Positions 35,220 through 50,980 of a DNA stretch of 64,000 nt are shown piece by piece. The stretch is taken from the NCBI GenBank assembly GCA_965207375.1, contig OZ242274.1, positions 1,600,001 to 1,664,000 of the forward strand. The letters run 5' to 3'. A model generated the notes under the pieces. It did not search any database and was not told where the DNA came from. It saw only the letters and a list, made by a program, of their open reading frames with translations. Made by a program: the position numbers and the translations under genes. Each line of letters opens with the position of its first letter. Positions within the stretch are counted from its first letter, which is position 1. The DNA is from Nitrosopumilaceae archaeon. GTDB taxonomy: Archaea; Thermoproteota; Nitrososphaeria; Nitrososphaerales; Nitrosopumilaceae.

Positions 35220-37052
35220 CTATACCAAGTTTAAAAGTCTTAATTTTATTGAATCATCGTTACCAAGTTCTATGCGTTTTTCCCTCTCATCGGTAAGCGA
35301 ACTCAAGATGTTGGCGCCGTGTTGTTTTAATTTGTACAGGATATCATGTGGGGTAGGAATGTCATTTTCGTCCTTTTTGTACCCTGGTGCAGAAACTTTT
35401 GCAATTAATTTATCGGGCCAGGTGTCATATTTGCGCGAGTCAAACCACAACATAAAGCTTGTACACGTAGTTTCAACCACATCAAGAAGAGATTGTGGAA
35501 TCTTGTCACGTTTTTTTAAATCTTGAAAGATCTTTATGATTTCATCTTCGACGAATCGTCGTTGGTCTATTGGAATTTCTGCCATCGATATTCCTATAAA
35601 TCGTAAAATAAAATACTTTATAGTTTTCTTGCCAAATATTTGCATCTGCCTCTTGTATCTATCTTTAAAGTCACAAGTTTGAGATTTTTTGCCCCAGTTT
35701 CTACACAATTCATCTATAGTTGTTAGGAATATGTGCGGTATGATTAGTTCTTTGATCTTACGATTCAAAAAGACCTTGTCATATTCAATGCGTTCTGCAA
35801 GCGAGAATAGATCTTTTTCTGGCATCATGGCCCCATTAGGATCAATTGCATAGGCGTAATATGCCCTTGCAGTGGTGTTTTTCTTTAAAAGTCGACGTAA
35901 AGTAACACGATTCTGTATACGGGCAGGCTCTGAACCAAATCCATTAGTTTGTCTTTCAAAATAAAAATCATTAAAATGAGTTTTACACTGAGATACAAGA
36001 TCACGCAATTCATCTGCAGTTGCTATTAAATCGATTGGTTTAATCGGATTTTGTGTATTTGTAGTTTGGCTTATCAGTACGTGCTCATCATCATCTGCCG
36101 TTTCGTGTATAGTCAGTGTTACAAAAATATCTTCAATTGATTCAGGTGATTTTTCCAAGACATATGTAGTCTGTCGTCCATTTACCACTTTGAGATTCCT
36201 AACTATGAATTCATTGGGGGAAGTTTCCTCAAAACCATCACACACAGCAGTAATACCGTTATTTAGTTTCCAAAATTTCTTTTGCCTCACAGAATCTGCA
36301 ATTGTTTTTAATATCTCTCTGTTTGTAAGTGACATGCTTAGATGTTCACGCGGATTTTCTAGATAAATGGAACGTTTGTAAGGCTTTATTGATTTGATTA
36401 AATCATGGGCATTGACATGACCTAAGATTGATGCTTTTTTGGTGGTAGGATCAGGTCGTTTTATTATATTGCCATTAAAATGAATTTTGATGTCAGGAGT
36501 ATGGGGCGTTCTGACATGTGAAAGAATTTCATCCAAATCTAGTATTTCGATGTTAATATCTGGGGAAAGCTTGTCACATTCATCATGAATCAACTGTTTT
36601 GCCTGATCATTTAGTTTACCTGTTACTGCAAAAAGCAGGATCTTTTTAAGATTAGGATTTTCTTGCCGCAACATGTTATAATCTCTGGATTTTTGTTTAA
36701 AATTAGAATTAGCGTCGTTTGGACAATTTTCCAAATATTTTAGCGTCTCTCTAAAAGATAAAATTTCCTCCCGGTCTACGATATGATTTAGCGTACTGCT
36801 GAATTTTGACTGTACAATCCACACGGATTGATTAGTTCCATTTCCGTCATAGTCTATGTACAGTATATCTATACCATAATCATTGGAGCCATCAATGCTT
36901 ACTGCCTCATCAATATCAAGTTCACTGTCAATGTCTAAAATATTGGTACATACCCAGCGTGGAAATGCCTGATAGTCTTTGATATCGTATTCTTTGGAAA
37001 TGTTTTGTATCTCTTCTATAAATTGTGACTGCATCTGCTCATCAGACATCAT
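35220..37052 (-). CDS. AIPR-family (abortive infection phage resistance) protein
   Basis: DGSNDYGID, IVQSKF, ENPREHL, FWKLNNGITAVC, VVNGRQTT, TNTQNPIK..DL, YFERQ. Confidence 0.88.
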   Translation of the reverse strand: MMSDEQMQSQFIEEIQNISKEYDIKDYQAFPRWVCTNILDIDSELDIDEAVSIDGSNDYGIDILYIDYDGNGTNQSVWIVQSKFSSTLNHIVDREEILSFRETLKYLENCPNDANSNFKQKSRDYNMLRQENPNLKKILLFAVTGKLNDQAKQLIHDECDKLSPDINIEILDLDEILSHVRTPHTPDIKIHFNGNIIKRPDPTTKKASILGHVNAHDLIKSIKPYKRSIYLENPREHLSMSLTNREILKTIADSVRQKKFWKLNNGITAVCDGFEETSPNEFIVRNLKVVNGRQTTYVLEKSPESIEDIFVTLTIHETADDDEHVLISQTTNTQNPIKPIDLIATADELRDLVSQCKTHFNDFYFERQTNGFGSEPARIQNRVTLRRLLKKNTTARAYYAYAIDPNGAMMPEKDLFSLAERIEYDKVFLNRKIKELIIPHIFLTTIDELCRNWGKKSQTCDFKDRYKRQMQIFGKKTIKYFILRFIGISMAEIPIDQRRFVEDEIIKIFQDLKKRDKIPQSLLDVVETTCTSFMLWFDSRKYDTWPDKLIAKVSAPGYKKDENDIPTPHDILYKLKQHGANILSSLTDEREKRIELGNDDSIKLRLLNLV

Positions 37053-37481
37053 TTAATCATTGTATCGTATGTTTATAACCCTTGTAATGCAAATACAGCA
37101 AAATCTTGATTGTGATCATATTCTATTCTGAATTATTTTGAAAAAATTGATTGTAATCTTATGTTCTCCGATCAAGGAAATTATGTGATAAATCGTATGT
37201 GTTAACGTCTAGATTTTTACTCTTATTTTATGACATCTCAAATTCGTGTTTAAAATTTACCAGAATTTCAAATCAACGTTACGATTTTGACATATTCTAA
37301 AAAATTTGTTGATTAATGGTTTTTGCCTTGCATGGTCTTGACTGCAATCACAAAATAAGAATGTGCCAAAACTCTAATGCTGCAAGTACTCTTCCATTTG
37401 TCAACGTGTTGCTCACCGTGACGGATTGTCAGGTTATCCATGTGTTGGTACGTGCCAGTAACAGTTACATGCATGTCATTT

Positions 37482-39170
37482 CTAATAGTAATGATGCATC
37501 TGCCGCTGCTCCAAACCCTCCTGCTCCCAGTGGTTATGGTTTCTTCCAGGTTCTTTGTGGGCGTGAACGGTCCCGTCAATATGGCAATGAGTATTGTCAA
37601 TAAGGTCTTTTACAAAGACGTCATCTACATTCAAAACCATATTTACCGCCTCAATAGAGGATTTTAACATCTGCTCTTTGACTGCAGCAGTATCTATTAT
37701 TCCACTCAAAGACATATCCTCCACACCTCTGGCACTAGAGTTAATCCCGTACCACCTAATTTGTCCGGTTCCTGAGGTTTTTGCCCTTAACTGCGGCAGT
37801 ACATCTAGCGTATTCATACCCACATTTCTTGCCAATGTCAACGGTATTTCGTCTAATGCATCGGCAAAACTTTGTATCGCTATTTGCTCCTTTCCTTCTA
37901 TTGATTCTGAAATTTCTCTGACCCTTTGTGCAATTATTGCCTCACATGAACCGCCGCCGAAAACGACAAATGGATCTTCAATAAAGTTTCTCAGCACAAA
38001 GATCGCATTTTTTACCGTACGATGAAACTCGTCAAGGTATCTTTTTGAACTGCATCGCAGCAGGAGTGTTACTGATCTGGGATTTTTTGCCTCTACAAAC
38101 AACATCTTATCCTCGCCGACATTTCTCTCGTATACGGAGGATGCAAAACCCAATTCATCCTTTGAGATTTTTTCAACATCCTTGCATGTATGAGCACCTG
38201 TGGATTTTTCCAGCCACCATAAATCATTATATTTTACCCTCCGGACCGAGATTATTCCCTGTTTAGCAAAGTATTCCTGTGCCAATTCTCCTATACCCTT
38301 CCTTGATATGACCAGTCCGGCACCTGATTCAGCAACCTTTTTGGCCAGCAAAAGGACATCACTTCCTTCTTGCTTTAGGAATTGACTCATCTGGGATGGG
38401 CTGGTGATCTCTATTTCTGACTCTGCCTTTGTCCGCATGGTTTCTAGCGGGTCGTTTAACAGCAGAACCTTTACGTCTTGCAGGCAGATTGGCATTTCAG
38501 AACTATCCACAGTCTTGTCAATTACAGTTCCCATTACAAGCTGGATGTCCCATGAGTTGCCAGATTTTTCTTCAATTTTGATGTCGTCTATGTCTATCTT
38601 TTGATTGTTAAAATCTGCCACAGCACAGACTGCATCCATTATCATCGCCCGTATCTTTATATTTTCAGGCATGGCATCAAAGATTGCCTTTCCTTCCAAA
38701 CAAGAATCAAGTAGCTGCTCCATAAGATTCCTGTCAGTATGACTCGACTTGATCTTTATCTCCTCCAAACATGTCAGGGCAGCCTCCAAGCTCATTTCAA
38801 AGCCTCGGATAATTGCTGTTGTAGGTATACCCATGCTGCGTAGCTTTTGCGCATGTTTTAGCAATGCACCAATTAAGACTGCAGACGCTATAGTACCATC
38901 GCCCACATGCCTATCCACCGTATTTACTGCTTCGACAACTGTTTTTGCAGCAGGATGATCAACGTCTACCTTTCTCAGAAAAGCCCCGCCGTGATTGGTA
39001 ATGGTTTCCTCCCCCAAGATGTCTATGTAGACCTTATCCATTCCTCGTGGGCCAAAGGACGTCTTGATGGTTTCAGTTACTAGTTGTCCTGCAATGATAT
39101 TGTACATCTGCGATTCCCTGATTCCGATCCGCGAGAGTTCTGGATTGATTATGTCCGGATATTTCATCAT
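37482..39170 (-). CDS. divergent group II chaperonin (thermosome-like) with substituted catalytic Asp residues and a His-rich C-tail
   Basis: SFGPRGMDK, HPAAK, VGDGT, GGGSCE, FADALDEIPLTLARN; TNDG->TNHG, SLHDAL->TVKNAI; tail THCHIDGTVHAH...NHNH...MHHYY. Confidence 0.9.
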   Translation of the reverse strand: MMKYPDIINPELSRIGIRESQMYNIIAGQLVTETIKTSFGPRGMDKVYIDILGEETITNHGGAFLRKVDVDHPAAKTVVEAVNTVDRHVGDGTIASAVLIGALLKHAQKLRSMGIPTTAIIRGFEMSLEAALTCLEEIKIKSSHTDRNLMEQLLDSCLEGKAIFDAMPENIKIRAMIMDAVCAVADFNNQKIDIDDIKIEEKSGNSWDIQLVMGTVIDKTVDSSEMPICLQDVKVLLLNDPLETMRTKAESEIEITSPSQMSQFLKQEGSDVLLLAKKVAESGAGLVISRKGIGELAQEYFAKQGIISVRRVKYNDLWWLEKSTGAHTCKDVEKISKDELGFASSVYERNVGEDKMLFVEAKNPRSVTLLLRCSSKRYLDEFHRTVKNAIFVLRNFIEDPFVVFGGGSCEAIIAQRVREISESIEGKEQIAIQSFADALDEIPLTLARNVGMNTLDVLPQLRAKTSGTGQIRWYGINSSARGVEDMSLSGIIDTAAVKEQMLKSSIEAVNMVLNVDDVFVKDLIDNTHCHIDGTVHAHKEPGRNHNHWEQEGLEQRQMHHYY

Positions 39171-39230
39171 GACACTACCGTGCTGATATTTTTAAAGATT
39201 ATCAAGGATATTCCATGACGTATTCTATTC

Positions 39231-40823
39231 TCATGTTCCGATCGAGGACTTGGGCTTGTCGTCAGCGTCATCTGGACTGTTCGTGCCGACATCAAATCCT
39301 GAACTCATAAATTCACCCTTAAAGTGTTTCAGGTCCTCGCCTGCAATGATGTCTTCCTCTGGAGGTACATAGTCTCTGACATCATGACGTGCCTTGCCAG
39401 GATACCTGTTCTGTGTAGCAAGGGCAACACCTATGAAAACCACAAATGAAACAACTGGCGGGATCATCGTATCTAGACCCGCTAGCTCCTCTGGCATGGT
39501 GAAGAAAAACGACAGTCTGAGAAACGAGCCTACAAGCAATGACGCTATTGCTGCTGGCATGTTTGCCTTTTTCCAGAACAACCCAAATGTCAGTGGTGCA
39601 AACGCACCTGCAAACATGATATCAAATGCAAGAACCAAATAGATGCCCGGCGCAGGTACAAAGTAACCCAAGGTAGTTCCTGCTACCATCATTGGTATTA
39701 TTGTGACCCTCGTCATCCAGAGCAGCTTTTTGTCATCGGTGCCCGGCTTTCCCAGCCACCGCCTGCGTATGATTCTGGTTACTAGATTTCTAGATATGAC
39801 ACTTGATATTGCCAACAGTCCCCCGCTTGCAGTGGACATGGAGGCACCTATGACACCCATAAGTATGGCAGCCCCAACTACAAACGGAAGGTGTTCAGTT
39901 GCCAACAATGGCAAGGCAAAGGCTGGAACAGTATCTGGTGGGAGGTAGTACAGGGCAACTATTCCCAACATACTGGTTGGAACCACGGTAAACAGTGTCA
40001 AGGCACCTCCCATAAATGCCCCCCTCCTTGCAGTCTTTGGACTCTTTGCAGCAAACACCCGTTCCATAAAGTCAAGGGCAATGATATCCCCAAGACCTAG
40101 TGCAAGTATTGCACCCCAATTGATCAATGCACCGTTTCCAATATCAAACAATCCGGACAGATCCAGAAACTCTGGAGGGGCACTGTTGTATATGGCATCC
40201 CACGGTACACCAGAGAATCCACCTGCAAAGAAAAGAAAACCCACCCAGAATGCTCCAATTGCAAGATATACTTGGAACAAATTAGTATAGGCAGAAGCAA
40301 AGAGACCACCGGCAACGGTATATGCAACCACTACTAGCGCCGAGATCAATATTCCCCAAAAGTAGTTTATCCCAAAGACGGTTTCTAAAATGAATCCGCT
40401 TGCAGCTAAATTGCCTGCAACTAAAACTATAAAGCTAATAATCATCAGTACCCCCGATATTCCTTCTGCGCCATTACCATATCTTCGAAAATAAAAGTCA
40501 GGCAAGGTTATCATCATCATCTTGTTGAGTGGCTTTGCATAGAACATGGCAGTAATTAACAGGCAAACTCCTAGGCCTATTGGCACTACTGCACCTGCCC
40601 AAAATCCAAACTCAAATACAAGAGCCACGTTTCCAAGCGTAGAGTTGCCATCTACTGCCTGGGCAGCAAGCATTGTTCCGACCATTGCAAGCGGCAAACT
40701 TTTTCCTGCAACAATCAGGCGTCTCCCGCTCTGCTTTACCAGCTTTCCTGCTAGAACGCCAACTACTAGAGTCAAGATGATGAAGGCAGCTATTGCAATA
40801 CCAAAGTCTCCAAAGTCGGCCAC
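39231..40823 (-). CDS. sodium:solute symporter (SSS) family transporter
   Basis: About 13 TM segments; VAGKSLP, TLPDFYFRRYG, YTVAGGL, ERVFAAKS, ASMSTASG, GLFWKKAN. Confidence 0.92.
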   Translation of the reverse strand: MADFGDFGIAIAAFIILTLVVGVLAGKLVKQSGRRLIVAGKSLPLAMVGTMLAAQAVDGNSTLGNVALVFEFGFWAGAVVPIGLGVCLLITAMFYAKPLNKMMMITLPDFYFRRYGNGAEGISGVLMIISFIVLVAGNLAASGFILETVFGINYFWGILISALVVVAYTVAGGLFASAYTNLFQVYLAIGAFWVGFLFFAGGFSGVPWDAIYNSAPPEFLDLSGLFDIGNGALINWGAILALGLGDIIALDFMERVFAAKSPKTARRGAFMGGALTLFTVVPTSMLGIVALYYLPPDTVPAFALPLLATEHLPFVVGAAILMGVIGASMSTASGGLLAISSVISRNLVTRIIRRRWLGKPGTDDKKLLWMTRVTIIPMMVAGTTLGYFVPAPGIYLVLAFDIMFAGAFAPLTFGLFWKKANMPAAIASLLVGSFLRLSFFFTMPEELAGLDTMIPPVVSFVVFIGVALATQNRYPGKARHDVRDYVPPEEDIIAGEDLKHFKGEFMSSGFDVGTNSPDDADDKPKSSIGT

Positions 40824-40868
40824 TGTTAAGATTAGAACAAAAAATTATTTAAATATTGAAAATTTTGA

Positions 40869-40918
40869 GTAAAGTACGGTTTTACGAGTAAAAAATAATA
40901 CGTAAAGTACATTTAAGC
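40869..40918. promoter_or_regulatory. two copies of a GTAAAnTACnTTTA motif upstream of the symporter TATA box
   Basis: GTAAAGTACGGTTTTAC (40869-40885) and GTAAAGTACATTTAAGC (40902-40918); minus-strand TTTAAATA at 40846-40853. Confidence 0.55.
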
Positions 40919-41020
40919 AAAATTTTTACATAAAAATCATAAAAATTGCAAATTTTTTAAATATGCCATTTTATTTCAGAGAATCTTAAACTTTTTTATT
41001 TAAATTCCCGATCAAAACTT

Positions 41021-41182
41021 ATGGACAAACAATTTGCATTTGCAGTAATTTTGATAATTTTGGGCTTTGGACTGACTCAGGTAAATCAGGAAGACCCTTT
41101 TTTTAGTGGATTAGGGTATGGAACTGTTGCAATGGCTGCAATTTGGATAGTATTTAGAATAGTCAAAGATCTGAAAAAATAA
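41021..41182 (+). CDS. 53-aa two-TM membrane microprotein (not in ORF track)
   Basis: MDKQFAFAVILIILGFGLTQVNQEDPFFSGLGYGTVAMAAIWIVFRIVKDLKK*; TTTAAA upstream. Confidence 0.65.
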   Translation: MDKQFAFAVILIILGFGLTQVNQEDPFFSGLGYGTVAMAAIWIVFRIVKDLKK

Positions 41183-41491
41183 CCAGTGTAGAGTCTTTTG
41201 CATTAATCTTTGGCAAATAGACAGTCACCCATACTGCGGTCCACAATGTGAATAAAAAATTCACATCATATTGCAAGTGAATGGTCTAAAGAATATGCGT
41301 TACGTAACTGCTCCATTGATCAACACTGCTGTGCCTGCATTACAATAAGTGTACTCCACTTGTTACTACCATGTTGTTCACACAACGAAAAATTATTTAT
41401 TTTAAAAAATATCAAATTTACAAAAAATCATAACACAAAAAGACACCACAATTCAAGAGGTGATAAATTGTGATAATTACTACAACAATTC

Positions 41492-42855
41492 TAGACAGTA
41501 GCGCAACTACGACTTGGTCCAAATCTAACTCACTTGATCCAAGTCTGATTGACTTGTACTGTAAAGTTTACAGTCATTATGCTCTAGCCATGGCCTCCTG
41601 CGCTATGTCTAGCATTTTATTGTATGCAAATACCTTAAATGAAATCTCCCGAACTATGTTTTCCATCTTTACTGCCATTACAGCGCTTCCAAACATTCGC
41701 TTGAATGCCGAAAACATTATCTCAACTAGCCATCTTCTGCCGTATCCTACCTGTTTTTTCCACTTTTTCATATTTTCTGCACGTTGTGCATCAGTTAATG
41801 TTGCAAATGTATTGGCATGCACTCCTCCTCCAAGCTGTTCTAGTACAGCCTTTTTGCGCGCCCTGCCTCCCTTTCTACCACGTACCTTTGCAGCAGAGTT
41901 AGAAGCTACTGGTGATACCAGCTCGATTCCAAATAAATCACACATATCAAAGAACTTGCATTTTGAATACAGTCCATCACCTAACAGTCTGATATTTGGA
42001 TTATTGTCTTTGTCCTTTTCTTCCAAGCGAGTCTGAATTGTATCTGTTGAATCATATTCTTTATCCTGTTTTGTATCTTGTTTTTTTGTACCACTCTTTA
42101 CATTCTCCTGTTTTGTATCTAGTTTTTCTGTATCTTGTTTTTGTACCTGTACACCCAGATTTTCTAGTGCGGTTTCAATCATATTCTCTAGTCCCATTGC
42201 TTCTCCGGTACGCTCATCTGTAATCTCATAGGCAAGTATCTTCATGGTATCGTGATCAATTATTGTTGTAAATCTGATAAAACCACGCCTAACTTTGTGT
42301 TTGGCACGTATAAATTCTCCACGGGTACACGGCTCTAGGCCTGTACCGTCAGGTAGTATGCTGATTGTAACCTTGTTATTACCATTTTTTTTGAATGTCA
42401 TCTTTCCAAGCTTGTCTGTATCTAGTGCTAGAATGCGTGTGCGTATTTTTGTAAAATGTGGAACGTTGTCTTTACCAAGGGATTCTGCTGCTAATCCTTC
42501 AAGTACACGATATGACAATCCGCACATTGAACGTACTAGTGCTAGGGCAACAAACAACGAATCAGGATATTCATACGGATGTCCGTTTTTTTTCTTGTTC
42601 ATACTGCGTAACTCCTCTTGTATTTGTGGATCATCAAGACTTTTGTTGGTCAATGCAAGCTGTCTTCCACGTTCGATGTATCTTGCATCGTTTTGAGCAT
42701 GAGTAATTTTAGTTCCATCAGCTAGTTTAGGCACAAGCATACAAGTGATATCATGATCAAAAAGCACGTAATGTAAAAAATCCTGATGGATTAGTCTAAT
42801 ATGGGTCATTTCGTATGATTTTGAAGGATTTTAGGCAGGGTTGCGCTACTGTCTA
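41492..42855 (-). mobile_element. IS5-family insertion sequence
   Basis: Perfect 16-bp IR TAGACAGTAGCGCAAC; direct repeat AACAATTC (8 bp, extendable to AACAATTCTA) on both sides. Confidence 0.88.
41577..42809 (-). CDS. IS5-family DDE transposase (true start may be 42740)
   Basis: GHPYEYPD, LSYRVLEG, PHFTKI, PDGTG, LLGDGLY, WKKQVGYGRRWLVEIMFSAFKRMFG. Confidence 0.88.
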   Translation of the reverse strand: MTHIRLIHQDFLHYVLFDHDITCMLVPKLADGTKITHAQNDARYIERGRQLALTNKSLDDPQIQEELRSMNKKKNGHPYEYPDSLFVALALVRSMCGLSYRVLEGLAAESLGKDNVPHFTKIRTRILALDTDKLGKMTFKKNGNNKVTISILPDGTGLEPCTRGEFIRAKHKVRRGFIRFTTIIDHDTMKILAYEITDERTGEAMGLENMIETALENLGVQVQKQDTEKLDTKQENVKSGTKKQDTKQDKEYDSTDTIQTRLEEKDKDNNPNIRLLGDGLYSKCKFFDMCDLFGIELVSPVASNSAAKVRGRKGGRARKKAVLEQLGGGVHANTFATLTDAQRAENMKKWKKQVGYGRRWLVEIMFSAFKRMFGSAVMAVKMENIVREISFKVFAYNKMLDIAQEAMARA

Positions 42856-44153
42856 AACAATTCTAATACTTTCTCATCTAATAATACCATTACACGCAAG
42901 ACAGAAAAATACGAATCAACAAAAAACTGTCTAGAAAAACCTAGAGAACAACCTGATCACAATAGTGTAACCCACAAGGTCAAAGTAGATGAAGAAAAAG
43001 ATCACGTCTTGTACACATGTATCAACTGTGGTTCTGAGGACATAGACTGCATATGTATCAAAATCATAACGATGACTGATCTTCAGTAGATGGAAATTCA
43101 CCCCTAACCTGCGCCACCTGCATCGTACGGCATTCCAACAATTCTGATATATTCTAAAGCACACACCATAACTGCACCGATCATCTGTCTCATTGTAATG
43201 TTTGACTGTGATACGTCATCATATCGCATCAATGTCCACATGTTGCGCATGAAAACGCAAATAAAAAACAGAAAAATCCGAAACAGATGATTGCGACTAC
43301 TGGTTCTAGGTCTGAATTGTTCTAGCTGTCTGTAGCCTGTCTCTATTCCCCACCTACGACGATACGCCTTTGGCAGCATCTCAATCTCTTTGATGGCACG
43401 CTCCTGTGATAAATTGGTGGCAAAGACTACATACTTTTCAATTATTTTAGCATCAGGATCATTATACTTTTTGGATTTTCTGATAACTAGTGTAAAGGTG
43501 AATTCTTGTCCATCTTTGTTTTTCATGGTATGAGACGACACTGCATCTGCTTTTCCTTCGTGGAATTTTATAATGCTATTTTTGATTATGGCGTTTTTTA
43601 CTGCTGGCATAAGAAACGTATAATGATTTTCGTAGTGATTTCATGACCTCTACTGAGAAAAATTCTCTATCTAGCAGCAAAAGGCGTGGATGAATCTTGT
43701 ATTTTTGCAGATTTTTGGCAAATCTATGCACGAAATCTACATCAGAATCGTCTTTGGTTATTGGAACACAATCCAGGGTAGGATTTTCATCTTTAGCTAC
43801 TATCTGCATGGTAGCATAAGCCTCAAATTTGGTGGTGCCCTTGTATGATTTGGACCGTATCAGATAAGCCAAACTGCCCTTGTCGTATCTTGGTATGAGA
43901 TGTTTGTCCATTGCAATCAGTGTGTCTGTTTTGTGAATTATTGTTTTTATTGCAGGTCGTGCTGTCTGGAGTATCATTTCATTGCAGACATGTTCTGTTT
44001 GATCAGAACTCATGCCATTTATCATGTTGCGTATCCATTTTCCACCTGGTGCATCTTTGTTAGTTTCAAAATCTGCAGCTACGGATTCTGCAGTGATACG
44101 AGAACGACTCATTTCAGTTAGCATTGTTGTAAAATTTACTAGTTTGTATTTTG

Positions 44154-45648
44154 GTACTTGTTCACGTGGTGTCTACAATTTCACCATTTGTTCAAATTTT
44201 GATCACCATCAGATCTAAATCATTCTGACTCACAAGTTGTATAATGAGTACCATCAACTGGAAAAGTGCATACAAAAAGGAACACCGAAAAGTCCTTCTT
44301 CTTGAATCTCTAGTATCAAGTTTACAAAAAATCATATTACAAAAAGATGACCTCCTACTACAAAAAGATAAAAAAATTCAAGAGCTTACCAAACGTGACA
44401 ACTATCATGACAATTCCAATACTCCTCCATCTAAGGATTCCATTACACGCAAGCAGGACCGCAAAATACGTGCAGAGAACAAAAAATCTACTGGAAAAAA
44501 ACAGGGAGGACAACCTGGTCGCACAGGTGTAGCCCGCAAGGTCAAAGTAGATGAAGAAAAAGAGCACAAATTAGACACGTGTACCAAGTGTGGTTCTCAA
44601 GACATACACCATACAGACACCAAAATCAGGATAATAACTGATATTGTGAAAACTCCTCCTCCACATACTTGCAAGCACAAGATTCATGGGTATCATTGCA
44701 ACTGCTGTGGAGCTACTGACATTACACCCGAGGTTGACATTCCAAAAAAGGGTCAGTTTGGAAATGAAGTGATAAAGGAGATAATGGATAATCACATACA
44801 TCGCATGCCGGTACGTATGAACAAGGAGGCCATGAAAAGACGTGGAATCGAAATATCTGAAGGAGGTATTCAAAACATCATAGATACAGTCTCTGATGCG
44901 TTATTTGTGCCTGCAAATGAGATAAAAGAAAAGATACAGGAAGCCGAGATTCTGATAGCAGATGAGACATCAGAGCGACTGCATGGAAAGACTATATGGT
45001 TGTGGACGTTTCATAATCCAATTACAAGTGAGAATTTCTATATAATTAATCCCAGCAGAGGAGCAGACGTACTCAAGGAAATAATAGGTGACTCACAAGA
45101 TATAATCATTACCTGTGACGGATGGCCTCCATACCGCAGATATATCATCCAGAGATGTAACGCGCACCTAATACGTGAAATCAAAACAATATCACAAAAG
45201 AATCCAGATTCTAAAATTGCAAAAAATACACTACAATGCCTACAAAAGATATACCATGACGGCAAACATGTCCTAGACAAACCACCTGATTACAGAGAAT
45301 CATATGCTGTACAATTGGAAAAAAGAACACGTAACCTTGTCAAAAGGTATGCCAATGATGAAATTGTGGGTAAATTTGTAGCAAAACTGTCACGGGCCAT
45401 ACCTGACATGTTTCGGTTTGTCATAGACCCTCGTATACCATCTACAAGCAATCTTGCAGAGCAGAGCCTGCGTGAGTATGTCGTGTGCAGGAGAATACGT
45501 GGATGTCTCAGATCTGAAAAAAGTATGGAGCGTAGAGGCAATCTGTATACGTGTGTTACTACCTGGAAGAATCTGGGACAGGATTATCTAGCAGAGCTGG
45601 TTCGGTACATTTAGGGCCAAAAATGCTCAAAAATAGGTGAACAAGTAC
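44154..45648 (+). mobile_element. intact single-ORF IS66-family element with 8-bp TSD GTATTTTG
   Basis: IR GTACTTGTTCAC/GTGAACAAGTAC; GTATTTTG at 44146-44153 and 45649-45656. Confidence 0.93.
44244..45614 (+). CDS. IS66-family transposase (TnpC-like)
   Basis: NSNTPPSKD, KQGGQPG, CxxC zinc finger, ADET, CDGW, QRCNAHLIRE, TSNLAEQSLR. Confidence 0.93.
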   Translation: MSTINWKSAYKKEHRKVLLLESLVSSLQKIILQKDDLLLQKDKKIQELTKRDNYHDNSNTPPSKDSITRKQDRKIRAENKKSTGKKQGGQPGRTGVARKVKVDEEKEHKLDTCTKCGSQDIHHTDTKIRIITDIVKTPPPHTCKHKIHGYHCNCCGATDITPEVDIPKKGQFGNEVIKEIMDNHIHRMPVRMNKEAMKRRGIEISEGGIQNIIDTVSDALFVPANEIKEKIQEAEILIADETSERLHGKTIWLWTFHNPITSENFYIINPSRGADVLKEIIGDSQDIIITCDGWPPYRRYIIQRCNAHLIREIKTISQKNPDSKIAKNTLQCLQKIYHDGKHVLDKPPDYRESYAVQLEKRTRNLVKRYANDEIVGKFVAKLSRAIPDMFRFVIDPRIPSTSNLAEQSLREYVVCRRIRGCLRSEKSMERRGNLYTCVTTWKNLGQDYLAELVRYI

Positions 45649-46165
45649 GTATTTTGTATTGTCTGCTGTGCCAAATTGTATACCTGCAGTTCCAAGTGTG
45701 TTTGAGAAGATATTAAAGATCCTTGTCCCAATCTCTCTTCGGTGTGTTTGCCCACTTTTTTGTTGACGCACTAAAGTGGGTAGGCTCACCATTCTTTTAG
45801 ATCCATAGATCAAAAATAATTCAATTTTCTGTCAAAATATGTCGATTTTTCACTTTTTTGATAGGTTTTTCCATCTACTGATCTTATAGTATCTCCTCTT
45901 CGTACTAGACACAAGATTCAGGAATATCATTATATCAACTGTGGTTATATCTACATTGCACCAAATGTTGAGATTCCAAAGTGGAATCATTTTGGATATG
46001 ATACGATAGAAAAAATAATGAAAAACCACATACTGCATGACTGTAAAGGCAATAACGTTTGCAAAAGCGCTATAGTTTGAAAAGGATTATGCAGTACATG
46101 TCAAAGAATGCAAAGACCCTAGCAGTGCGTGATTCTATCTAGTTTGAATATTTGTATCAATTATT

Positions 46166-46906
46166 TCACAGGAATGCAGATAGTTTCCCAGAAGATAAAA
46201 GTCCGTGAATTATTATTGTCCCTATAATTACAGTTATGGTTCCAGTCATAATTTGCAGACCTTTTCTTAACTTGGTAACTCTAGACACAAGGCGGAGTGG
46301 AACAGACAATGTACTGCTTGCCACCATCATACCGATTATAGATCCTAATCCAAACACCAACACAAACGAAAACACACCGTACATGTCACCTAGTGTCACC
46401 GCACTCACTGCAATCAGGCTTCCGCTTCCTGCTAGGCCGTGAATACATCCTATTAGATAGGACTTGTGAGTGTGTGAGTGACTGTCTCCGTGTCTATGTG
46501 GATGAGTGTGAATTGGACCGTTTTCATGTACATGGGGATGCGAATGCCCCAGATGGATTTTCTTTTTGTACATCGATATCCCCAATGCCACCAGCATCAC
46601 TCCGACTGCAAGCTCAAATCCATCAAATATGACAGATGGAATTTTAAATGCAAGTACAAAGACCAAAAAGCTGACCAGAAGGATCATGGAGGTATGACCG
46701 AATCCCCATATGGCTCCCAGAAGGGAGTTTCTCAGTGTCGCCAGTCTAAAGGACACAGGTGCTTTCTTTCCTTTACTATTTTGCATCTGTATCATCACTG
46801 CACTGATGTGATCTGGTTCAAAGGCATGCAAGAGGCCTACTAAGAATCCAGCTGAAAGCAAAAGACCTGTGCTGTTACCCAGCTGGCCGAGTGTTTCTAG
46901 AAACAT
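46166..46906 (-). CDS. His-rich nickel/cobalt transporter (UreH/NiCoT-related)
   Basis: GLLHAFEPDH, WGFGHT, HSHPHVHENGPIHTHPHRHGDSHSHTH, GCIHGLAGSG, FGLGSIIGM. Confidence 0.88.
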   Translation of the reverse strand: MFLETLGQLGNSTGLLLSAGFLVGLLHAFEPDHISAVMIQMQNSKGKKAPVSFRLATLRNSLLGAIWGFGHTSMILLVSFLVFVLAFKIPSVIFDGFELAVGVMLVALGISMYKKKIHLGHSHPHVHENGPIHTHPHRHGDSHSHTHKSYLIGCIHGLAGSGSLIAVSAVTLGDMYGVFSFVLVFGLGSIIGMMVASSTLSVPLRLVSRVTKLRKGLQIMTGTITVIIGTIIIHGLLSSGKLSAFL

Positions 46907-47295
46907 CAGAATCCTCGCACGGAAGAACGCAACGCAATGTCCCGTACAGGTATCGGCCTGTACAGTGAAACAGTGTATTTTTTATCCAAAATCACCTCAA
47001 AATCTAGCCTCTGAAGCATCTCTGGAACTCCAATCATTACCTGCCCTGCAGATAAAATTGACGATGCATCTTGTCTTGTCCTGTTTGCGGTTTTTCCCTC
47101 CATAATATATGAAACAACAAAACCTGCAAACAGCAATAGCGTTTCATTGATGTTTATTTTTTGCTGTAGAGTCTGCATTTTTTGTATTTTTTCACATGAT
47201 GCAATAAATATCTCATCGTCTGGTTTTTGAAACCGGAACCTTTTTTTGTACGGCAAGATATCTGGCTCCCCGTGGATTGTTATTGTAATTTGCAT
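46906..47295 (-). CDS. orphan, divergent urease gamma-subunit (UreA)-like protein
   Basis: KININETLLLFAGFVVSYIMEGKT...ILSAGQVMIGVPEML...YRPI resembles UreA KLNYPEA...GK.V...VL...QVM.GVPEM...H.PI; no ureB/ureC in the window. Confidence 0.7.
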   Translation of the reverse strand: MQITITIHGEPDILPYKKRFRFQKPDDEIFIASCEKIQKMQTLQQKININETLLLFAGFVVSYIMEGKTANRTRQDASSILSAGQVMIGVPEMLQRLDFEVILDKKYTVSLYRPIPVRDIALRSSVRGF

Positions 47296-48411
47296 CTAAT
47301 CTCTCTTTGGTATCTCTGCCTTGGGATTGCCAAAATTATACGTGTTGCCAGTTCCCCGATAGTCGTGCGGCCGTACAGGACTTCCACCATCCAAGCCGCG
47401 CTTTGTAAGGGATAGGCCAGCAAGCAGTTCTACCACGAGTCTCTGTCCTAGGCCCGATGTTATGCCTCCATTGTAAGAGCTGTTGTCACTTACGTCATAG
47501 GCAGGCGATATCTCTACTAGGTCCATTGCAAACCTGTCGGGATCAAATGATTTGGATAACAGTCGAATCATCCTGATTCCTTCTCTTGATGTAAGGCCGT
47601 TTGGTTCGGGCTCTCCGGTTCCAGGTGCATATGCTGGGTCAAAGGAATCAATGTCCCAGCTGAGATAAACTGCGTCTGTGCCGTCGTTTGCCCTGTCTGC
47701 AATCTCCTTTGCAATGTAATCAATTCCTAATTCTTCTACATCTAGCATTGTAAACCATTGAAAGTCCTGGTCTGCCATCCATTTGTACAGGTCAGGACCA
47801 GGCCAATATCCCCTTGGTCCTACAAGGGAATAGTTCTTTCCCTTTAGGCAGCCCATCTCCATTATCCTCCGTATGTGTGCACCATGATCATATTTGTAGC
47901 CGGTCAGGCCTTGCGGTGCACAGTCTGCATGTGTATCAAAATGAATCATTCCAATGTTTTTGAATTTTTTGGCAAAAGCACGAACGTTTGCATATGTAAT
48001 GGAATGATCTCCCCCAAGCATGACTGGAATTCCATCCTGCTCAAGAACCTCCTTTACCTTTAAGGTCATTCTCTTGTGTGACTCTATTACGTCTCCTGGA
48101 GAAACCAAAACGTCCCCGTAATCCACAGTTCTAAAGGTGCCAAACGGATCAGCACCGGTCTCTATGTTGAATCTCTCATATGGTGGGGACGGAACAGTGG
48201 AGGCAGCCCTGATTGCACGTGGACCATACCTTGCACCCGGACGGATTGTAGTTCCAAAATCAAAAGGCTCTCCAATTATTGCAACGTCTGGTTTTACCTC
48301 TTTTAACTCCTTATGGGACTTGATCCAAGGTAGGTGAAGAAAGGTGTTGATTCCAACAAATGGAGCCACATCTGCCCCTCGATAGTCATCACCGTAAAAC
48401 TCCATTCCCAT
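47296..48411 (-). CDS. ureohydrolase (agmatinase/arginase family), substrate uncertain
   Basis: GEPFDFGTTIRPGARYGPRAIR, GGDHS, DTHAD, HG, SWDIDSFDPAYAPGTGEPEPNGL, DLVEISPAYD. Confidence 0.93.
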   Translation of the reverse strand: MGMEFYGDDYRGADVAPFVGINTFLHLPWIKSHKELKEVKPDVAIIGEPFDFGTTIRPGARYGPRAIRAASTVPSPPYERFNIETGADPFGTFRTVDYGDVLVSPGDVIESHKRMTLKVKEVLEQDGIPVMLGGDHSITYANVRAFAKKFKNIGMIHFDTHADCAPQGLTGYKYDHGAHIRRIMEMGCLKGKNYSLVGPRGYWPGPDLYKWMADQDFQWFTMLDVEELGIDYIAKEIADRANDGTDAVYLSWDIDSFDPAYAPGTGEPEPNGLTSREGIRMIRLLSKSFDPDRFAMDLVEISPAYDVSDNSSYNGGITSGLGQRLVVELLAGLSLTKRGLDGGSPVRPHDYRGTGNTYNFGNPKAEIPKRD

Positions 48412-48457
48412 AATGATTCAAAAAATACTGACAGATTTCAATAAATAAAGATTCTAG

Positions 48458-48474
48458 GTAAACTACGTTTAAGC
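48458..48474. promoter_or_regulatory. GTAAACTACGTTTAAGC motif upstream of the ureohydrolase promoter
   Basis: 15/17 identical to 40902-40918; lies just upstream of minus-strand TTTATTTA (48442-48449). Confidence 0.55.
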
Positions 48475-48529
48475 CTGCACACCACATAGAATGGATCTAA
48501 TTATAAACCAAATTAACCATGACTAATTT

Positions 48530-49741
48530 GTGTTTTCCAAGACCAAAAACGAGTGGAGCATAATCAACAAGGGACTCTACTGGGAGCGCTATAATGAATT
48601 CAAAAAGGCAATACGACAGTTTGACAAGGCGTTGCAGGTAGACCCGCAAAATATAGTTGCAAATACACATAAAGGAAATTCACTATACGAGTTAAACCAA
48701 TTTGTCGAGGCTCTGAAATGTTTTGAACTGATTTTGAGCACTGATCCAAAAAACATAACTGCCCTGCACAGCAAGGGACTGTGCTTAGAAAAGCTTGGCA
48801 GGTATAGGGAGGCAGTCTCGTCCTTTTGCAAAGTACTGGCAGTAGATCACAACTATTTAGATTCAAAGACATGCATGGCAGATTGCAAAAGCAGTATGGG
48901 CATGCACAGTGAGGCCATTGAGATTCTAAATGACGTACTAGAATATGATCCAAAAAATGTCTGGGCCATGTACAGCAAGGGCAGGATTCTTGGCAGGATG
49001 GGACAAAAACACAAGTCCATGACGTATTTCAGCAAGGCCGCATGGGAAGAGTCGATACAGTCAAAGAAATGCTATGAAACAGGCAAGCAATTGACTGACA
49101 GTGGCAAGCACGAGGAGGCAATAAAATGGTATTCCAAGGCCCTCAAGTACGATTCAAATAATTTGGATGCTCTAGTTGCCAAGGGTTGGACGCTGGATCT
49201 GGCGGGATTTTCGACAAAAGATGTCTTTCCATTCTTTGACAAGGCACTTGAGATTGACCCAGAGTTCACTCATGCATGGCTAAACAAGGGATTTGTCTTT
49301 GATCGTATTGGAATGTTTTCAAAAGCCACAGAATGCTTTGAAAACATCCTCAAGTACGATCCCAAAAATGTCAGGGCACTGTACAGCAAGGCAGTATCTT
49401 TGTTTTCATTAAAACAGTATAGTGCTGCTGTCTTTTTTTGCCAAGAAGCCATAAGAATCGAACCGTCTAACACCAAGGCATTATGTAGCATGGTGTGGAT
49501 CTTAGAACACAAGAAAAAATATGATGAGGCTCTCAAATATTGCGACCTAGCACTCAAATGCAATCCTCAATATGTCTATGCAATAAGTTACAAGGGAAAA
49601 ATTTTATTTTCAATGAAAAAATATGATGAGGCTCTCAAATATTATGAAAAGGCACTACAGTTAGATCCAAAAAACCAGACCGCAATATATTACAAAAACC
49701 AGACGCTTGAAAAACTTGAGAAAAGCAAAAAACAAATCTGA
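48530..49741 (+). CDS. tetratricopeptide-repeat protein
   Basis: About ten 34-aa units of the type A...KG..L...Y.EA...F.KAL..DP.N. Confidence 0.93.
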   Translation: MFSKTKNEWSIINKGLYWERYNEFKKAIRQFDKALQVDPQNIVANTHKGNSLYELNQFVEALKCFELILSTDPKNITALHSKGLCLEKLGRYREAVSSFCKVLAVDHNYLDSKTCMADCKSSMGMHSEAIEILNDVLEYDPKNVWAMYSKGRILGRMGQKHKSMTYFSKAAWEESIQSKKCYETGKQLTDSGKHEEAIKWYSKALKYDSNNLDALVAKGWTLDLAGFSTKDVFPFFDKALEIDPEFTHAWLNKGFVFDRIGMFSKATECFENILKYDPKNVRALYSKAVSLFSLKQYSAAVFFCQEAIRIEPSNTKALCSMVWILEHKKKYDEALKYCDLALKCNPQYVYAISYKGKILFSMKKYDEALKYYEKALQLDPKNQTAIYYKNQTLEKLEKSKKQI

Positions 49742-49825
49742 GAAAAACAGTCAGGTTATTCGTATTCTACGTTTCAAAACAAAACAGTACAAAATTCTTA
49801 TATCCTACAATTTGGTATCTAAACC

Positions 49826-50077
49826 ATGGTCACAGTAGCTACACCTGAGGATATAGAAAGGGAGGCAAGTAGAGTTATTAATTCACTGTACGGTCAAGTG
49901 TCTGACTTTAGGGTAAACACAACCTTTCAAATGCCAGAAAAGGGACCAAGGGAAGCTTGGGATGTTCAAGTAAACTTTATGCTAGACGGGCTCAAATATA
50001 CAGTAGATCTTGAGATACAAGAAAGCAACGGCCATGTAACCAATGCAAGATTGATTGACACCATGACGCCCCTCTAA
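49826..50077 (+). CDS. conserved small hypothetical protein (PepSY-like fold possible)
   Basis: 83-aa ORF with TATA-like TTATAT upstream. Confidence 0.75.
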   Translation: MVTVATPEDIEREASRVINSLYGQVSDFRVNTTFQMPEKGPREAWDVQVNFMLDGLKYTVDLEIQESNGHVTNARLIDTMTPL

Positions 50078-50095
50078 TCTTTATCAGGTATGCAA

Positions 50096-50614
50096 CTAGA
50101 CTGTCAGTATTTCTTTTGCCGCCTTAATCTTTTGAAGCAGTTCGTTTATGTGATTGTCTGCAAATCTTTCAAAAGATATGCGCTCAACCCTAGTCTTTAG
50201 CTTGCAGTGTCTCTGATATTCCTTTTGAAGCCAGTTAAAGTCAGATTCCTTTAACCTGATTACATTTCGTTGTGAATTGAACTTGGATTCAAAGAGGTTG
50301 GCAAGAAAATACCCTATAAAGTGCGCAAAGCATTTTATCTTGTATTTTTTCTCATACTCTTCTGTAAGCTGCATGTGGTTTTGTTGTAGCCAGTTTTTTA
50401 CGTCAGAACGAACAGTCAACGTATTGTATCTTCCCGTCAAGTCGACTGTAATCTTGTGGGTTTCCACCGAATATCTTCCAAGGTTTACCTCGTTCATCAA
50501 AATTATCAGGGTGCTTGGAAGAAACATTCCTGGATAAAATGTGTTGGTCATACTCTCTAGCAGGGACAACACGCTTGGTTTTAATCCAATTGTAGAGTAA
50601 CCCTCACCCGGCAT
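50096..50614 (-). CDS. conserved hypothetical protein (possible DNA-binding)
   Basis: 172-aa ORF MPGEGYSTIGLKP... Confidence 0.75.
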   Translation of the reverse strand: MPGEGYSTIGLKPSVLSLLESMTNTFYPGMFLPSTLIILMNEVNLGRYSVETHKITVDLTGRYNTLTVRSDVKNWLQQNHMQLTEEYEKKYKIKCFAHFIGYFLANLFESKFNSQRNVIRLKESDFNWLQKEYQRHCKLKTRVERISFERFADNHINELLQKIKAAKEILTV

Positions 50615-50658
50615 GGTTTAATTGTGTTACTCTATGTTATATGATTTGTGTCATACCC

Positions 50659-50718
50659 AGCTAAACGAAATGTGACTCAAATGCTTACCATATCACTATT
50701 GTTCTCTGCATTTTGAGG
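50659..50718 (+). mobile_element. truncated MITE family A copy
   Basis: CAGCTAAACGAAATGTGACTCAAATGCTTACC...TTCTCTGCATTTTG. Confidence 0.6.
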
Positions 50719-50980
50719 TACCTAGTTTTGTGTCGGGTAAACTTTTACACATCGCTATATAATCATGAACAATAAATTTTCAAAACAAACATTGTTTATA
50801 ATTTACAATCTTTTATCTAAGATTCAGCATTTTAGTTAAATGTTATTGATTCTGTAACAATCATTAAATAGCATTTTTTCTAACACAATATAGCTAGAAA
50901 ATCTATGATCGGTAAAGACACAGAGTTTGGAATTTTATGCATCATGTTACATCCTAGTATTTTTACATGTGGTGATATAA

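Follow-up and report, generated by a model that had tools for sequence, protein, structure and literature searches.

What does an ammonia-oxidising archaeon do with a gene cluster that couples an arginase-family ureohydrolase to a urease-gamma-like protein, a candidate nickel permease, a sodium:solute symporter and a chaperonin with a histidine-rich tail? We addressed this question for a 64-kb stretch of the genome of a Nitrosopumilaceae archaeon (GCA_965207375.1; contig OZ242274.1, here C1:1600001-1664000; the whole stretch is called the window, and coordinates are positions in it unless preceded by C1), in which an earlier note made from the sequence alone had proposed a nickel-dependent ureohydrolase system. 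Open reading frames (ORFs) and family matches agreed with the five co-oriented minus-strand genes of that proposal, here called hyd (hydrolase), UreA-like, nit (permease), sssX (symporter) and thsX (thermosome paralogue) (Table 1). Both tight junctions, read directly from the sequence, were as claimed, with the TAG stop of hyd abutting the ATG of the UreA-like gene and the UreA-like stop and permease start overlapping as TGATG. The module also includes genes past the coordinates first assigned to it, up to position 50614. On balance we lean towards reading these genes as a conserved module, accessory to urease in ammonia-oxidising archaea, by which the cell would obtain ammonia from a guanidino compound.

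One line of evidence for this reading is co-occurrence. Each component was searched in 151 genomes of the window's family, with at least 80% identity defining a hydrolase orthologue; the tallies include one or two genomes flagged as unpublished (G108, G109), on which no claim rests. Hydrolase orthologues were present in 65 of the 151 genomes and urease alpha in 83, among them 62 of the 65 hydrolase-positive genomes, leaving 21 genomes with urease and no hydrolase. The three hydrolase-positive genomes lacking urease were only 76, 84 and 85% complete, and the distribution of the hydrolase is nested within urease-bearing genomes. The symporter gene sssX was found in 63 genomes, comprising 62 of the 65 hydrolase-positive genomes and a single urease-only genome (60% complete). 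Similarly, thsX occurred in 63 genomes, 60 of them hydrolase-positive and three urease-only (60-84% complete), and a 61st thsX accompanying the hydrolase, in G019, was detected by tblastn only. All 59 genomes with the UreA-like gene were hydrolase-positive, the gene always lay directly downstream of the hydrolase, and none of the 21 urease-only genomes had it. The permease gene nit, present in 71 genomes, was found in 82% of hydrolase-positive genomes (53/65), in 24% of urease-only genomes (5/21) and in 20% of those with neither (13/65). Comparison of the 65 with the 21 genomes thus indicated that the accessory genes track the hydrolase and not urease. Orthologues in a class-level sample of 201 genomes were confined to three of 14 families, all of one order, and the gene-neighbourhood survey that the earlier note had called for showed the five genes co-inherited across three families of ammonia-oxidising archaea, with a promoter motif common to the hydrolase and sssX. 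The recurrence of this gene set among relatives speaks against a chance arrangement.

The earlier note had called the UreA homologue an orphan, and indeed the window holds no further urease gene, while the HypA family (PF01155) had no match in the whole genome. The label nevertheless did not survive inspection of the complete genome, where a single-copy ureA-G set lies at C1:333.8-340.7 kb, 1.3 Mb from the module, in the order DUR3-like transporter, ureDGFE, IS66 copy, ureABC and second DUR3-like transporter; in relatives the urease genes are often adjacent to the module. According to coordinates tabulated by hand, the hydrolase and ureC lay at most 20 kb apart in 28 genomes (28 of the 39 in which both share one contig), more than 20 kb apart on one contig in 11, including this one, and on different contigs in 23. 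The island was contiguous in G017 (thsX-ureDGFE / ureABC / nit-hyd / TPR ... sssX), and the locus L039, from a metagenome-assembled genome (MAG) labelled Nitrososphaera sp., showed the order sssX..hyd-UreA-like-nit-thsX-ureDGFE/ureAB; thsX abuts ureD in L024 as well as in L039. The maps of relatives' hydrolase loci (30 in all) and the three-family distribution indicated an old module whose native place is next to urease and which, in this genome, moved away as a unit. Its genes stay together even where urease is distant, both here and in the other genomes with more than 20 kb between the two. Even haloarchaea keep the pairing of a hydrolase homologue (50-52% identity) with an sssX homologue (38-40% identity), and the haloarchaeal locus L047 has ureF and ureD upstream. 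A further possibility raised at the outset, that the accessory genes are remnants of a urease operon, was not borne out, because relatives with that operon alongside keep a canonical ureA besides the UreA-like gene (L018, L031, L039, L118 and L119). G012 was considered as a natural test of the UreA-like protein replacing canonical UreA and was set aside; its divergent ureA and ureE (L016 12962-13108 and 13210-13533) are 5′-truncated and retain only UreA residues 52-100 and UreE residues 66-168, either through deletion of the shared promoter region or through an assembly fault.

A second line of evidence came from the promoters. An element with the core palindrome CGTA-N3-TAC was spotted by eye in the aligned intergenic regions between hyd and the divergent gene for a tetratricopeptide-repeat (TPR) protein, beside an A/T-rich TATA-like box. 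Exact GTAANNTACG had two matches in the 64 kb against 0.68 expected, one at −47 of the hydrolase start and one at −46 of the sssX start, with a second sssX copy 32 nt further upstream and another copy upstream of the 83-aa gene that follows the TPR gene. Relatives carry the same sssX pair at −45 to −51 and −76 to −83. Of 17 archaeal loci, 14 had a site between −25 and −60 relative to the hydrolase start and 10 had one in the corresponding interval before sssX, and 40 of the 76 CGTA-N3-TAC sites fell in promoter windows that make up 1.06% of the sequence, although the 17 loci are related and a p-value is therefore not meaningful. This operator-like motif, common to both promoters, suggests a single regulon comprising the hydrolase operon and the sssX-thsX pair, despite the cluster of insertion sequences (ISs) that lies between them.

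The TPR gene stood beside the hydrolase, in divergent orientation, in 26 of the 30 mapped loci, and ORFs of the same size occupy the position of the 83-aa gene in L014, L015, L023, L027 and L030. The 172-aa protein at the far end of the module was conserved in 15 loci with a mean column identity of 64%. Its predicted structure (pLDDT 86) consists of two beta-alpha-alpha units followed by helices and weakly resembled TraY (Foldseek E 0.16, VIA Z 5.0, residues 4-116) as well as single-chain Arc and AvtR (VIA Z 4.9), and its nearest named atlas clusters were ribbon-helix-helix (RHH) families (0.82-0.84). With modest confidence, we regard this protein as the probable regulator of the module, a tandem RHH protein. 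An Rfam scan of positions 37000-51000 at E up to 1 returned no match, and hence no known guanidine riboswitch was found there. A ParB-N/HTH_ParB protein is encoded inside the module of some relatives (L021 4566-5540, L018 14009-14758, L039 4658-5404 and L040 6086-7078), and not in that of the window; the ParB-type gene of L039 has two CGTA-N3-TAC sites immediately before it, as a pair.

The match of the hydrolase to the arginase family was full-length (profile positions 2-277 of 280), placing it within the superfamily. As the earlier note had observed, the metal ligands are kept: all six binuclear-metal ligands (H136, D159, H161, D163, D253 and D255) were invariant across the clade alignment. 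The motifs it had singled out, HGAHIRR and GTGEPEPNG, were located at residues 176-182 and 264-272, together with GGDHS (133-137), FDTHAD (158-163) and WDIDSFD (252-258). The closest solved structure was GbuA (3nio; 177.5 bits, 4e-51), barely above GdmH (7esr/7oi1; 170.2 bits, 6e-49) and followed by the Nitrospira inopinata guanidinase (9fek; 166.6 bits), with agmatinases lower (about 121 bits) and MfmA at 1e-34. The placement rests on these bit scores and on NCBIfam cut-offs, and the score of the hydrolase fell short of the curated agmatinase cut-offs (TIGR01230, 155.2 vs 174.3; NF002564, 206.7 vs 302). By its sequence the hydrolase belongs to what appears to be a distinct archaeal clade, made up of ammonia oxidisers and of haloarchaeal homologues at 50-55% identity, with the signatures GTGEPEP (GTGTPEP in the closest bacterial relatives) and YDHGA, an SDxxSYNGGIT insertion and a conserved extension at the C-terminus. 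The variable position of the GTGxPE motif is thus Glu here, Thr in GbuA and Trp in GdmH. In the available part of a study of guanidine hydrolysis, Thr, His, Trp and Glu positions are named as important, with Thr97 and Trp305 (Synechocystis numbering) setting specificity (PMC11410670). HMMER alignment to 7esr and 9fek showed that the hydrolase keeps the Thr (FGTTIR, residues 52-57), the His and the Glu, and that Glu267 occupies the Trp305 position. A second carboxylate beside the guanidinium group to be cleaved would be in keeping with a substrate that is small and cationic.

Conservation of the hydrolase was exceptional among the module proteins. Against its orthologue in G080, a genome of another genus, amino-acid identity was 98.7% with dN 0.009 and saturated synonymous sites, which suggests extreme purifying selection, and the corresponding identities of the other proteins were 91.5% (sssX), 69.7% (thsX), 64.4% (nit) and 53.5% (UreA-like). 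Comparison with loci L115/L116 (G080), L025 (G059) and L023 (G004) showed that the module is nearer to that of G080, which has the UreA-like gene, than to that of the same-genus G004, in which the hydrolase is 95% and sssX 84% identical and the UreA-like gene is missing; this may reflect exchange within the family or unequal rates. In a lineage outside the window's family (L021 5893-7146; P0013), the hydrolase carries a C-terminal extension of about 45 residues, rich in His and of the HxHxHxH type. The L021 protein has 11 His in its last 70 residues, and its gene directly precedes nit and ureABC.

The chaperonin matched curated thermosome models above their cut-offs (NF041082, 485.9 vs 450; NF041083, 481.5 vs 400) and is the third, divergent thermosome of the genome, 38-40% identical to two housekeeping paralogues. 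The His-rich tail that the earlier note had pointed out proved to be conserved. In the window, the last 45 residues contain eight His (...THCHIDGTVHAH..HNH..EQRQMHHYY), and the last 55 residues contain 8-9 His in 17 of 17 orthologues, including those of L039 and L040 (MAGs labelled Nitrososphaera sp. and Nitrososphaerales), with the pattern THCHxDGxVHAH...HNH...EQRQMHHYY. In contrast, the two housekeeping paralogues have no His in this stretch and end in Gly/Met/Pro-rich tails. The C-termini of group II chaperonins point into the central cavity. In the part of the report available, a study of a hadal MAG took an extra thermosome close to urease and to a 'unique' symporter for a pressure adaptation (PMC7265257); the distribution of thsX described above favours a role linked to the hydrolase instead.

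The UreA-like protein is a diverged paralogue of urease gamma. Its Pfam match covers only part of the chain (Table 1), its scores lie below the NCBIfam urease-gamma cut-offs (TIGR00193, 31.2 vs 123; NF009712, 26.5 vs 82.3), and its gene follows the hydrolase gene and does not precede ureB as in a ureABC operon; public records nonetheless name such proteins 'urease subunit gamma'. The model (pLDDT 87.9) matched 17 urease gamma chains or domains in Foldseek, best 4fur (E 5.8e-6, TM 0.80), and the protein is accordingly predicted to have the urease-gamma fold. Ahead of this fold, residues 2-21 form a two-stranded hairpin not present in canonical UreA. Conservation of the hairpin and of its GEPD motif extends from the window's family to MAGs labelled Nitrososphaera sp., Nitrososphaerales and Thaumarchaeota, and residues G9, N48, V86, G89, V90, P91 and I115 are invariant. 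With dN of 0.34 and saturated synonymous sites, dN/dS is at most about 0.13. The protein therefore appears to be real, under purifying selection and made in step with the hydrolase, even though its identity is 28-41% among genera whose hydrolases are 80-99% identical. Both same-genus relatives lack the gene and have nit directly after the hydrolase, and it appears to have been lost several times. A complex prediction for the hydrolase and the UreA-like protein scored 0.00, gave no verdict and is used as evidence neither way.

The importer and the permease bear on the substrate and on the metal. The symporter sssX is only 22-25% identical to the two DUR3-like urea transporters (DUR3a/b) of the urease locus, and its best solved relatives are high-affinity choline transporters (1.2e-25). 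The permease itself gave no Pfam match even at E 5 and a weak RcnA match in NCBIfam; five of nine orthologues matched NicO (PF03824, 1.4e-6 to 2.1e-4), one of them above the cut-off at 28.4 bits, and the atlas neighbours of nit were named nickel transporters (0.95-0.98). It contains HX4DH (HAFEPDH at residue 27), which we take to be the signature of NicO/NiCoT Ni/Co transporters, and a His-rich loop with 12 His in 34 residues from residue 118. These sequence features support membership of the Ni/Co NicO family and, with it, the nickel-transporter label of the earlier note. The gene is single-copy, no NicO or HupE/UreJ family match was found elsewhere in the genome, and a genome search for the cobW family returned only UreG and one weak match. 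Taken together, a NicO permease that is coupled to and enriched with the hydrolase, the His-rich thsX tail and the His-tailed hydrolase orthologues favour Ni or Co, and we estimate the chance that the hydrolase depends on either metal as roughly even.

The best-supported reading of these data is a route from import through hydrolysis to urea and on to urease. In this scheme, for which we infer the substrate, the metal, all protein-protein contacts and the identity of the regulator, the molecule taken up by sssX would probably be small, cationic and of the guanidine type, perhaps guanidine itself, and the ureohydrolase would split it into urea and ammonia or an amine, after which the urease encoded elsewhere would turn the urea into ammonia for ammonia oxidation. 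The NicO-type permease would provide the metal, Ni or Co; thsX, with its His-rich tail facing the folding chamber, would aid folding or metallation of the hydrolase; and the UreA-like protein would be a helpful and dispensable accessory subunit produced in concert with the hydrolase. Through the CGTA-N3-TAC operator, probably bound by the tandem-RHH protein, the hydrolase operon would be co-regulated with the TPR operon and the sssX-thsX pair.

Several observations weigh against parts of this scheme. With Glu267 in place of Trp305, the hydrolase failed the published guanidinase signature and is not of the GdmH type by that measure, which fits the statement, in the portion of PMC11410670 at hand, that a screen found no guanidine-degradation genes in ammonia-oxidising archaea. 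Its metal ligands are identical to those of Mn enzymes. The permease is missing from 12 of the 65 hydrolase-positive genomes and present in 13 genomes that lack both hydrolase and urease; Co is a further substrate of NicO transporters; and nit, as the only recognisable Ni permease of the genome, may serve urease too, a role that the uninterrupted order hyd-nit-ureABC-ureEFGD in G027, which belongs to a different family and has no separate UreA-like gene, would fit. Haloarchaeal homologues adjoin a ZIP gene (L046 9226-10080) or one for a ZnuA-type binding protein (L047 11467-12939), with no NicO, pointing to Zn or Mn in those organisms, and the accessible text of PMC11271267 records Zn-, Fe- and Co-dependent members of the arginase family, including Zn-dependent guanidinobutyrases. 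Profile searches did not find the UreA-like gene in six of the 65 hydrolase-positive genomes (G002, G004, G017, G085, G128 and G131), so its product cannot be an obligatory maturation factor. Finally, the sampled genomes are related and not independent, so that the co-occurrence counts are descriptive and overstate the support. The interpretation of the earlier note is accordingly only partly supported: its Ni-maturation kit replacing HypA/HypB is undercut by the dispensability of the UreA-like protein and by the presence of UreDEFG, which could equally load the metal.

Three rival explanations and one more far-reaching proposal were weighed. The hydrolase could be an ordinary Mn (or Zn) enzyme, a guanidinobutyrase or second agmatinase within an extended urease island in which nit, thsX and the UreA-like protein serve urease. 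Proximity to ureC in 28 of 39 one-contig genomes, the G027 gene order, the placement of thsX next to ureD in L024 and L039, and nit as the sole recognisable Ni permease all speak for it, as do GbuA as the best PDB match, the ZIP and ZnuA neighbours in haloarchaea and the Zn-dependent guanidinobutyrases reported in the available text of PMC11271267. We nevertheless consider it unlikely, given that urease-only genomes hold thsX in 3/21, sssX in 1/21 and the UreA-like gene in 0/21 cases, with nit in 5/21, near the 13/65 background, that the accessory genes remain with the hydrolase though urease lies up to 1.3 Mb away, and that the operator-like motif ties the hydrolase to sssX. We are similarly doubtful of the more far-reaching proposal, an unrecognised Ni (or Co) hydrolase for guanidine or another small guanidinium compound. 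Glu would replace the Trp as an alternative way of shaping the pocket, and a novel type of kit would build the metal centre, with a dedicated group II chaperonin holding metal on its His-rich tail within the folding chamber and a UreA-derived adaptor maybe borrowing UreDFG.

Two narrower explanations fared worse. That the UreA-like gene is a decaying, functionless ureA duplicate kept by operon inertia would account for its fast evolution (28-41% identity where hydrolases share 80-99%), its absence from six of 65 hydrolase-positive genomes, including both same-genus relatives, and its scores below the urease-gamma cut-offs. We find this improbable, however, as the ORF is intact in 59 family genomes and in loci of MAGs labelled Nitrososphaera or Nitrososphaeraceae, is in every case coupled in translation to the hydrolase, and encodes traits of its own (the N-terminal hairpin, GEPD and the invariant residues) on a confidently modelled fold with a dN/dS of at most about 0.13. 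Little credence is also due to a biosynthetic or housekeeping role of the hydrolase, for example in polyamine synthesis, with sssX importing an unrelated solute. Public annotations do name the hydrolase agmatinase or guanidinobutyrase, and the arginase family includes the agmatinases of polyamine synthesis; yet the genome encodes a separate SpeB-like paralogue (C1:1089625, about 290 aa, 29-38% identity to the hydrolase), paralogues of this sort are widespread in the family sample, and an arginase-family match at E 1e-20 or better occurs in 139 of the 151 genomes, with or without the hydrolase. Moreover, the hydrolase was seen only with urease, save in the three incomplete genomes, scored below the agmatinase equivalog cut-offs and shares the operator-like motif with the importer.

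The accessory-module reading can be set against known systems. GdmH (Synechocystis Sll1077; 7ESR/7OI1) is likewise an arginase-family, hexameric-type, urea-releasing enzyme with a PEPxG loop and the same Thr, His and Glu positions, as far as PMC11410670 was available, and for the module a link to Ni, there served by GhaA/GhaB, is suggested by the NicO permease nearby and by accessory proteins rich in His. Unlike GdmH, the module enzyme has Glu267 at the Trp305 position, no HypA-like gene was found in this genome, and the accessories are a thermosome paralogue, the UreA-like protein and a TPR protein. The comammox guanidinase of Nitrospira inopinata (9FEK) follows the same nitrifier logic, from guanidine import to urea and NH3 and on to urease, with a permease next to the enzyme and, within the available part of PMC11410670, no dedicated Ni chaperone found. 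Since comammox guanidinases also lack HypA/HypB-like chaperones according to that source, their lack here does not exclude guanidinase activity. The same source describes an APC permease and a guanidine-I riboswitch for comammox, in contrast to the SSS symporter, the lack of an Rfam match and the protein-type operator here. The metformin hydrolase MetCaCb/MfmAB with MetAB also belongs to the arginase family and, in the accessible text of PMC11271267, depends on Ni and is encoded together with an importer and with chaperones for the metal. The enzyme is heteromeric, one subunit being an inactive partner that has the same fold, and its chaperones are HypA/HypB-like, whereas the small partner gene of the module encodes a urease-gamma fold. 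GbuA of Pseudomonas aeruginosa (3NIO), the best solved match, has a similar HGxxxRR loop but GTGTPE in place of GTGEPEP and neither the SDxxSYNGGIT insertion nor the conserved C-terminal extension of the module clade; we know of no metal-related gene neighbours of GbuA.

The accessory proteins have partial parallels as well. Helicobacter pylori HspA is a GroES, the lid of a group I chaperonin, with a His/Cys-rich Ni-binding C-terminal tail. It resembles thsX as a chaperonin-system component with a His-rich tail, putatively metal-binding in thsX, and occurs in an organism with a Ni enzyme, but the thsX tail sits on a dedicated group II chaperonin paralogue that tracks a ureohydrolase and not urease. 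UreH/NiCoT-type Ni permeases occur in urease clusters and share with nit a length of about 250 aa, a multi-pass architecture, HX4DH, a His-rich loop and a position beside a metalloenzyme gene. They differ in that nit lies below Pfam detection and follows the hydrolase (53/65) over urease alone (5/21).

Table 1. Features of the module and of the elements within it (positions in the window).
Feature	Position	Strand	Remarks
thsX: thermosome (group II chaperonin) paralogue	37482..39170	-	PF00118 4.4e-131
sssX: sodium:solute symporter	39231..40823	-	PF00474 3.3e-28
Two operator-like palindromes CGTA-N3-TAC	40869..40910	.	-46 and -78 of sssX start codon
Small ORF, opposite strand	41021-41182	+	between sssX and IS nest
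IS nest interrupting the module	41577..45614	.	three transposase genes (ORF and Pfam)
DDE_Tnp_1 transposase, intact, 410 aa	41577-42809	-	
DDE_Tnp_1 transposase, split into two overlapping ORFs, 182+168 aa	43104-44124	-	
IS66-family transposase, 456 aa	44244-45614	+	
nit: NicO/UreH-like Ni/Co secondary permease, 246 aa	46166..46906	-	membrane protein
UreA-like: diverged urease-gamma paralogue, 129 aa	46906..47295	-	PF00547 1.1e-6, residues 40-115 only
hyd: arginase-family ureohydrolase	47296..48411	-	PF00491 1.9e-80
Operator-like palindrome CGTAGTTTAC (hydrolase strand)	48458..48467	.	-47 of hydrolase start, divergent hyd/TPR promoter region
TPR-repeat protein	48530..49741	+	TPR_1 8.4e-64; divergent from hydrolase
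83-aa protein, no Pfam family	49826..50077	+	conserved after TPR gene; palindrome CGTATTCTACG at -55
172-aa protein, candidate tandem RHH regulator	50096..50614	-	no Pfam family

The interruption of the module by an IS nest and one small opposite-strand ORF, which the earlier note had discounted, was confirmed (Table 1). Split DDE_Tnp_1 pairs like the one in the nest recur elsewhere in the genome, with 6-7 tblastn matches each. The IS66-type element, about 1.5 kb long (44152-45648 in the window), is present in 10 copies on contig C1 at an identity of at least 98.9%; besides the copy inside the module, one lies at C1:336637-338134, between ureE and ureA of the urease locus. These near-identical copies point to recent IS activity and offer a possible route for rearrangements. 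No IS was found at the corresponding position in the mapped loci of relatives, where sssX and thsX flank the hydrolase on its TPR side; the arrangement in the window is both split by the nest and rearranged. Directly downstream of the thermosome gene, positions 35220-37052 encode a 610-aa AIPR-family protein (PF10592, 6.1e-31) that is unrelated to the module and was not seen beside the thermosome in relatives' loci. The G+C content over module genes (38000-40000 and 46000-48000) is 0.43-0.45, compared with 0.34-0.39 for most of the window.

Ammonia-oxidising archaea are the dominant nitrifiers of the ocean and of many soils, and apart from ammonia their known substrates are urea and, for a few of them, cyanate. 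The module, carried by 65 of the 151 sampled family genomes and present in two further families of the order, is wired to urease and is a strong candidate for a further source of nitrogen and energy. We found no description of it in the literature searched, which did not extend to subscription papers, and we regard it as a variant of the known utilisation clusters built on a ureohydrolase, with accessory genes that are unusual and possibly new as a set. In it a group II chaperonin paralogue carries a conserved, putatively metal-binding tail, a urease subunit would have been recruited to a different hydrolase and a simple shared operator would define the regulon. Were the enzyme indeed a hydrolase for guanidine or another small guanidinium compound, guanidine-type nitrogen could be open to oxidation by many ammonia oxidisers among the archaea of sea and soil, against the published view that the genes for it are missing from them. 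Given that the screen, in the available part of its report, found no guanidine genes in these archaea, a positive assay would change how their use of dissolved organic nitrogen is modelled.

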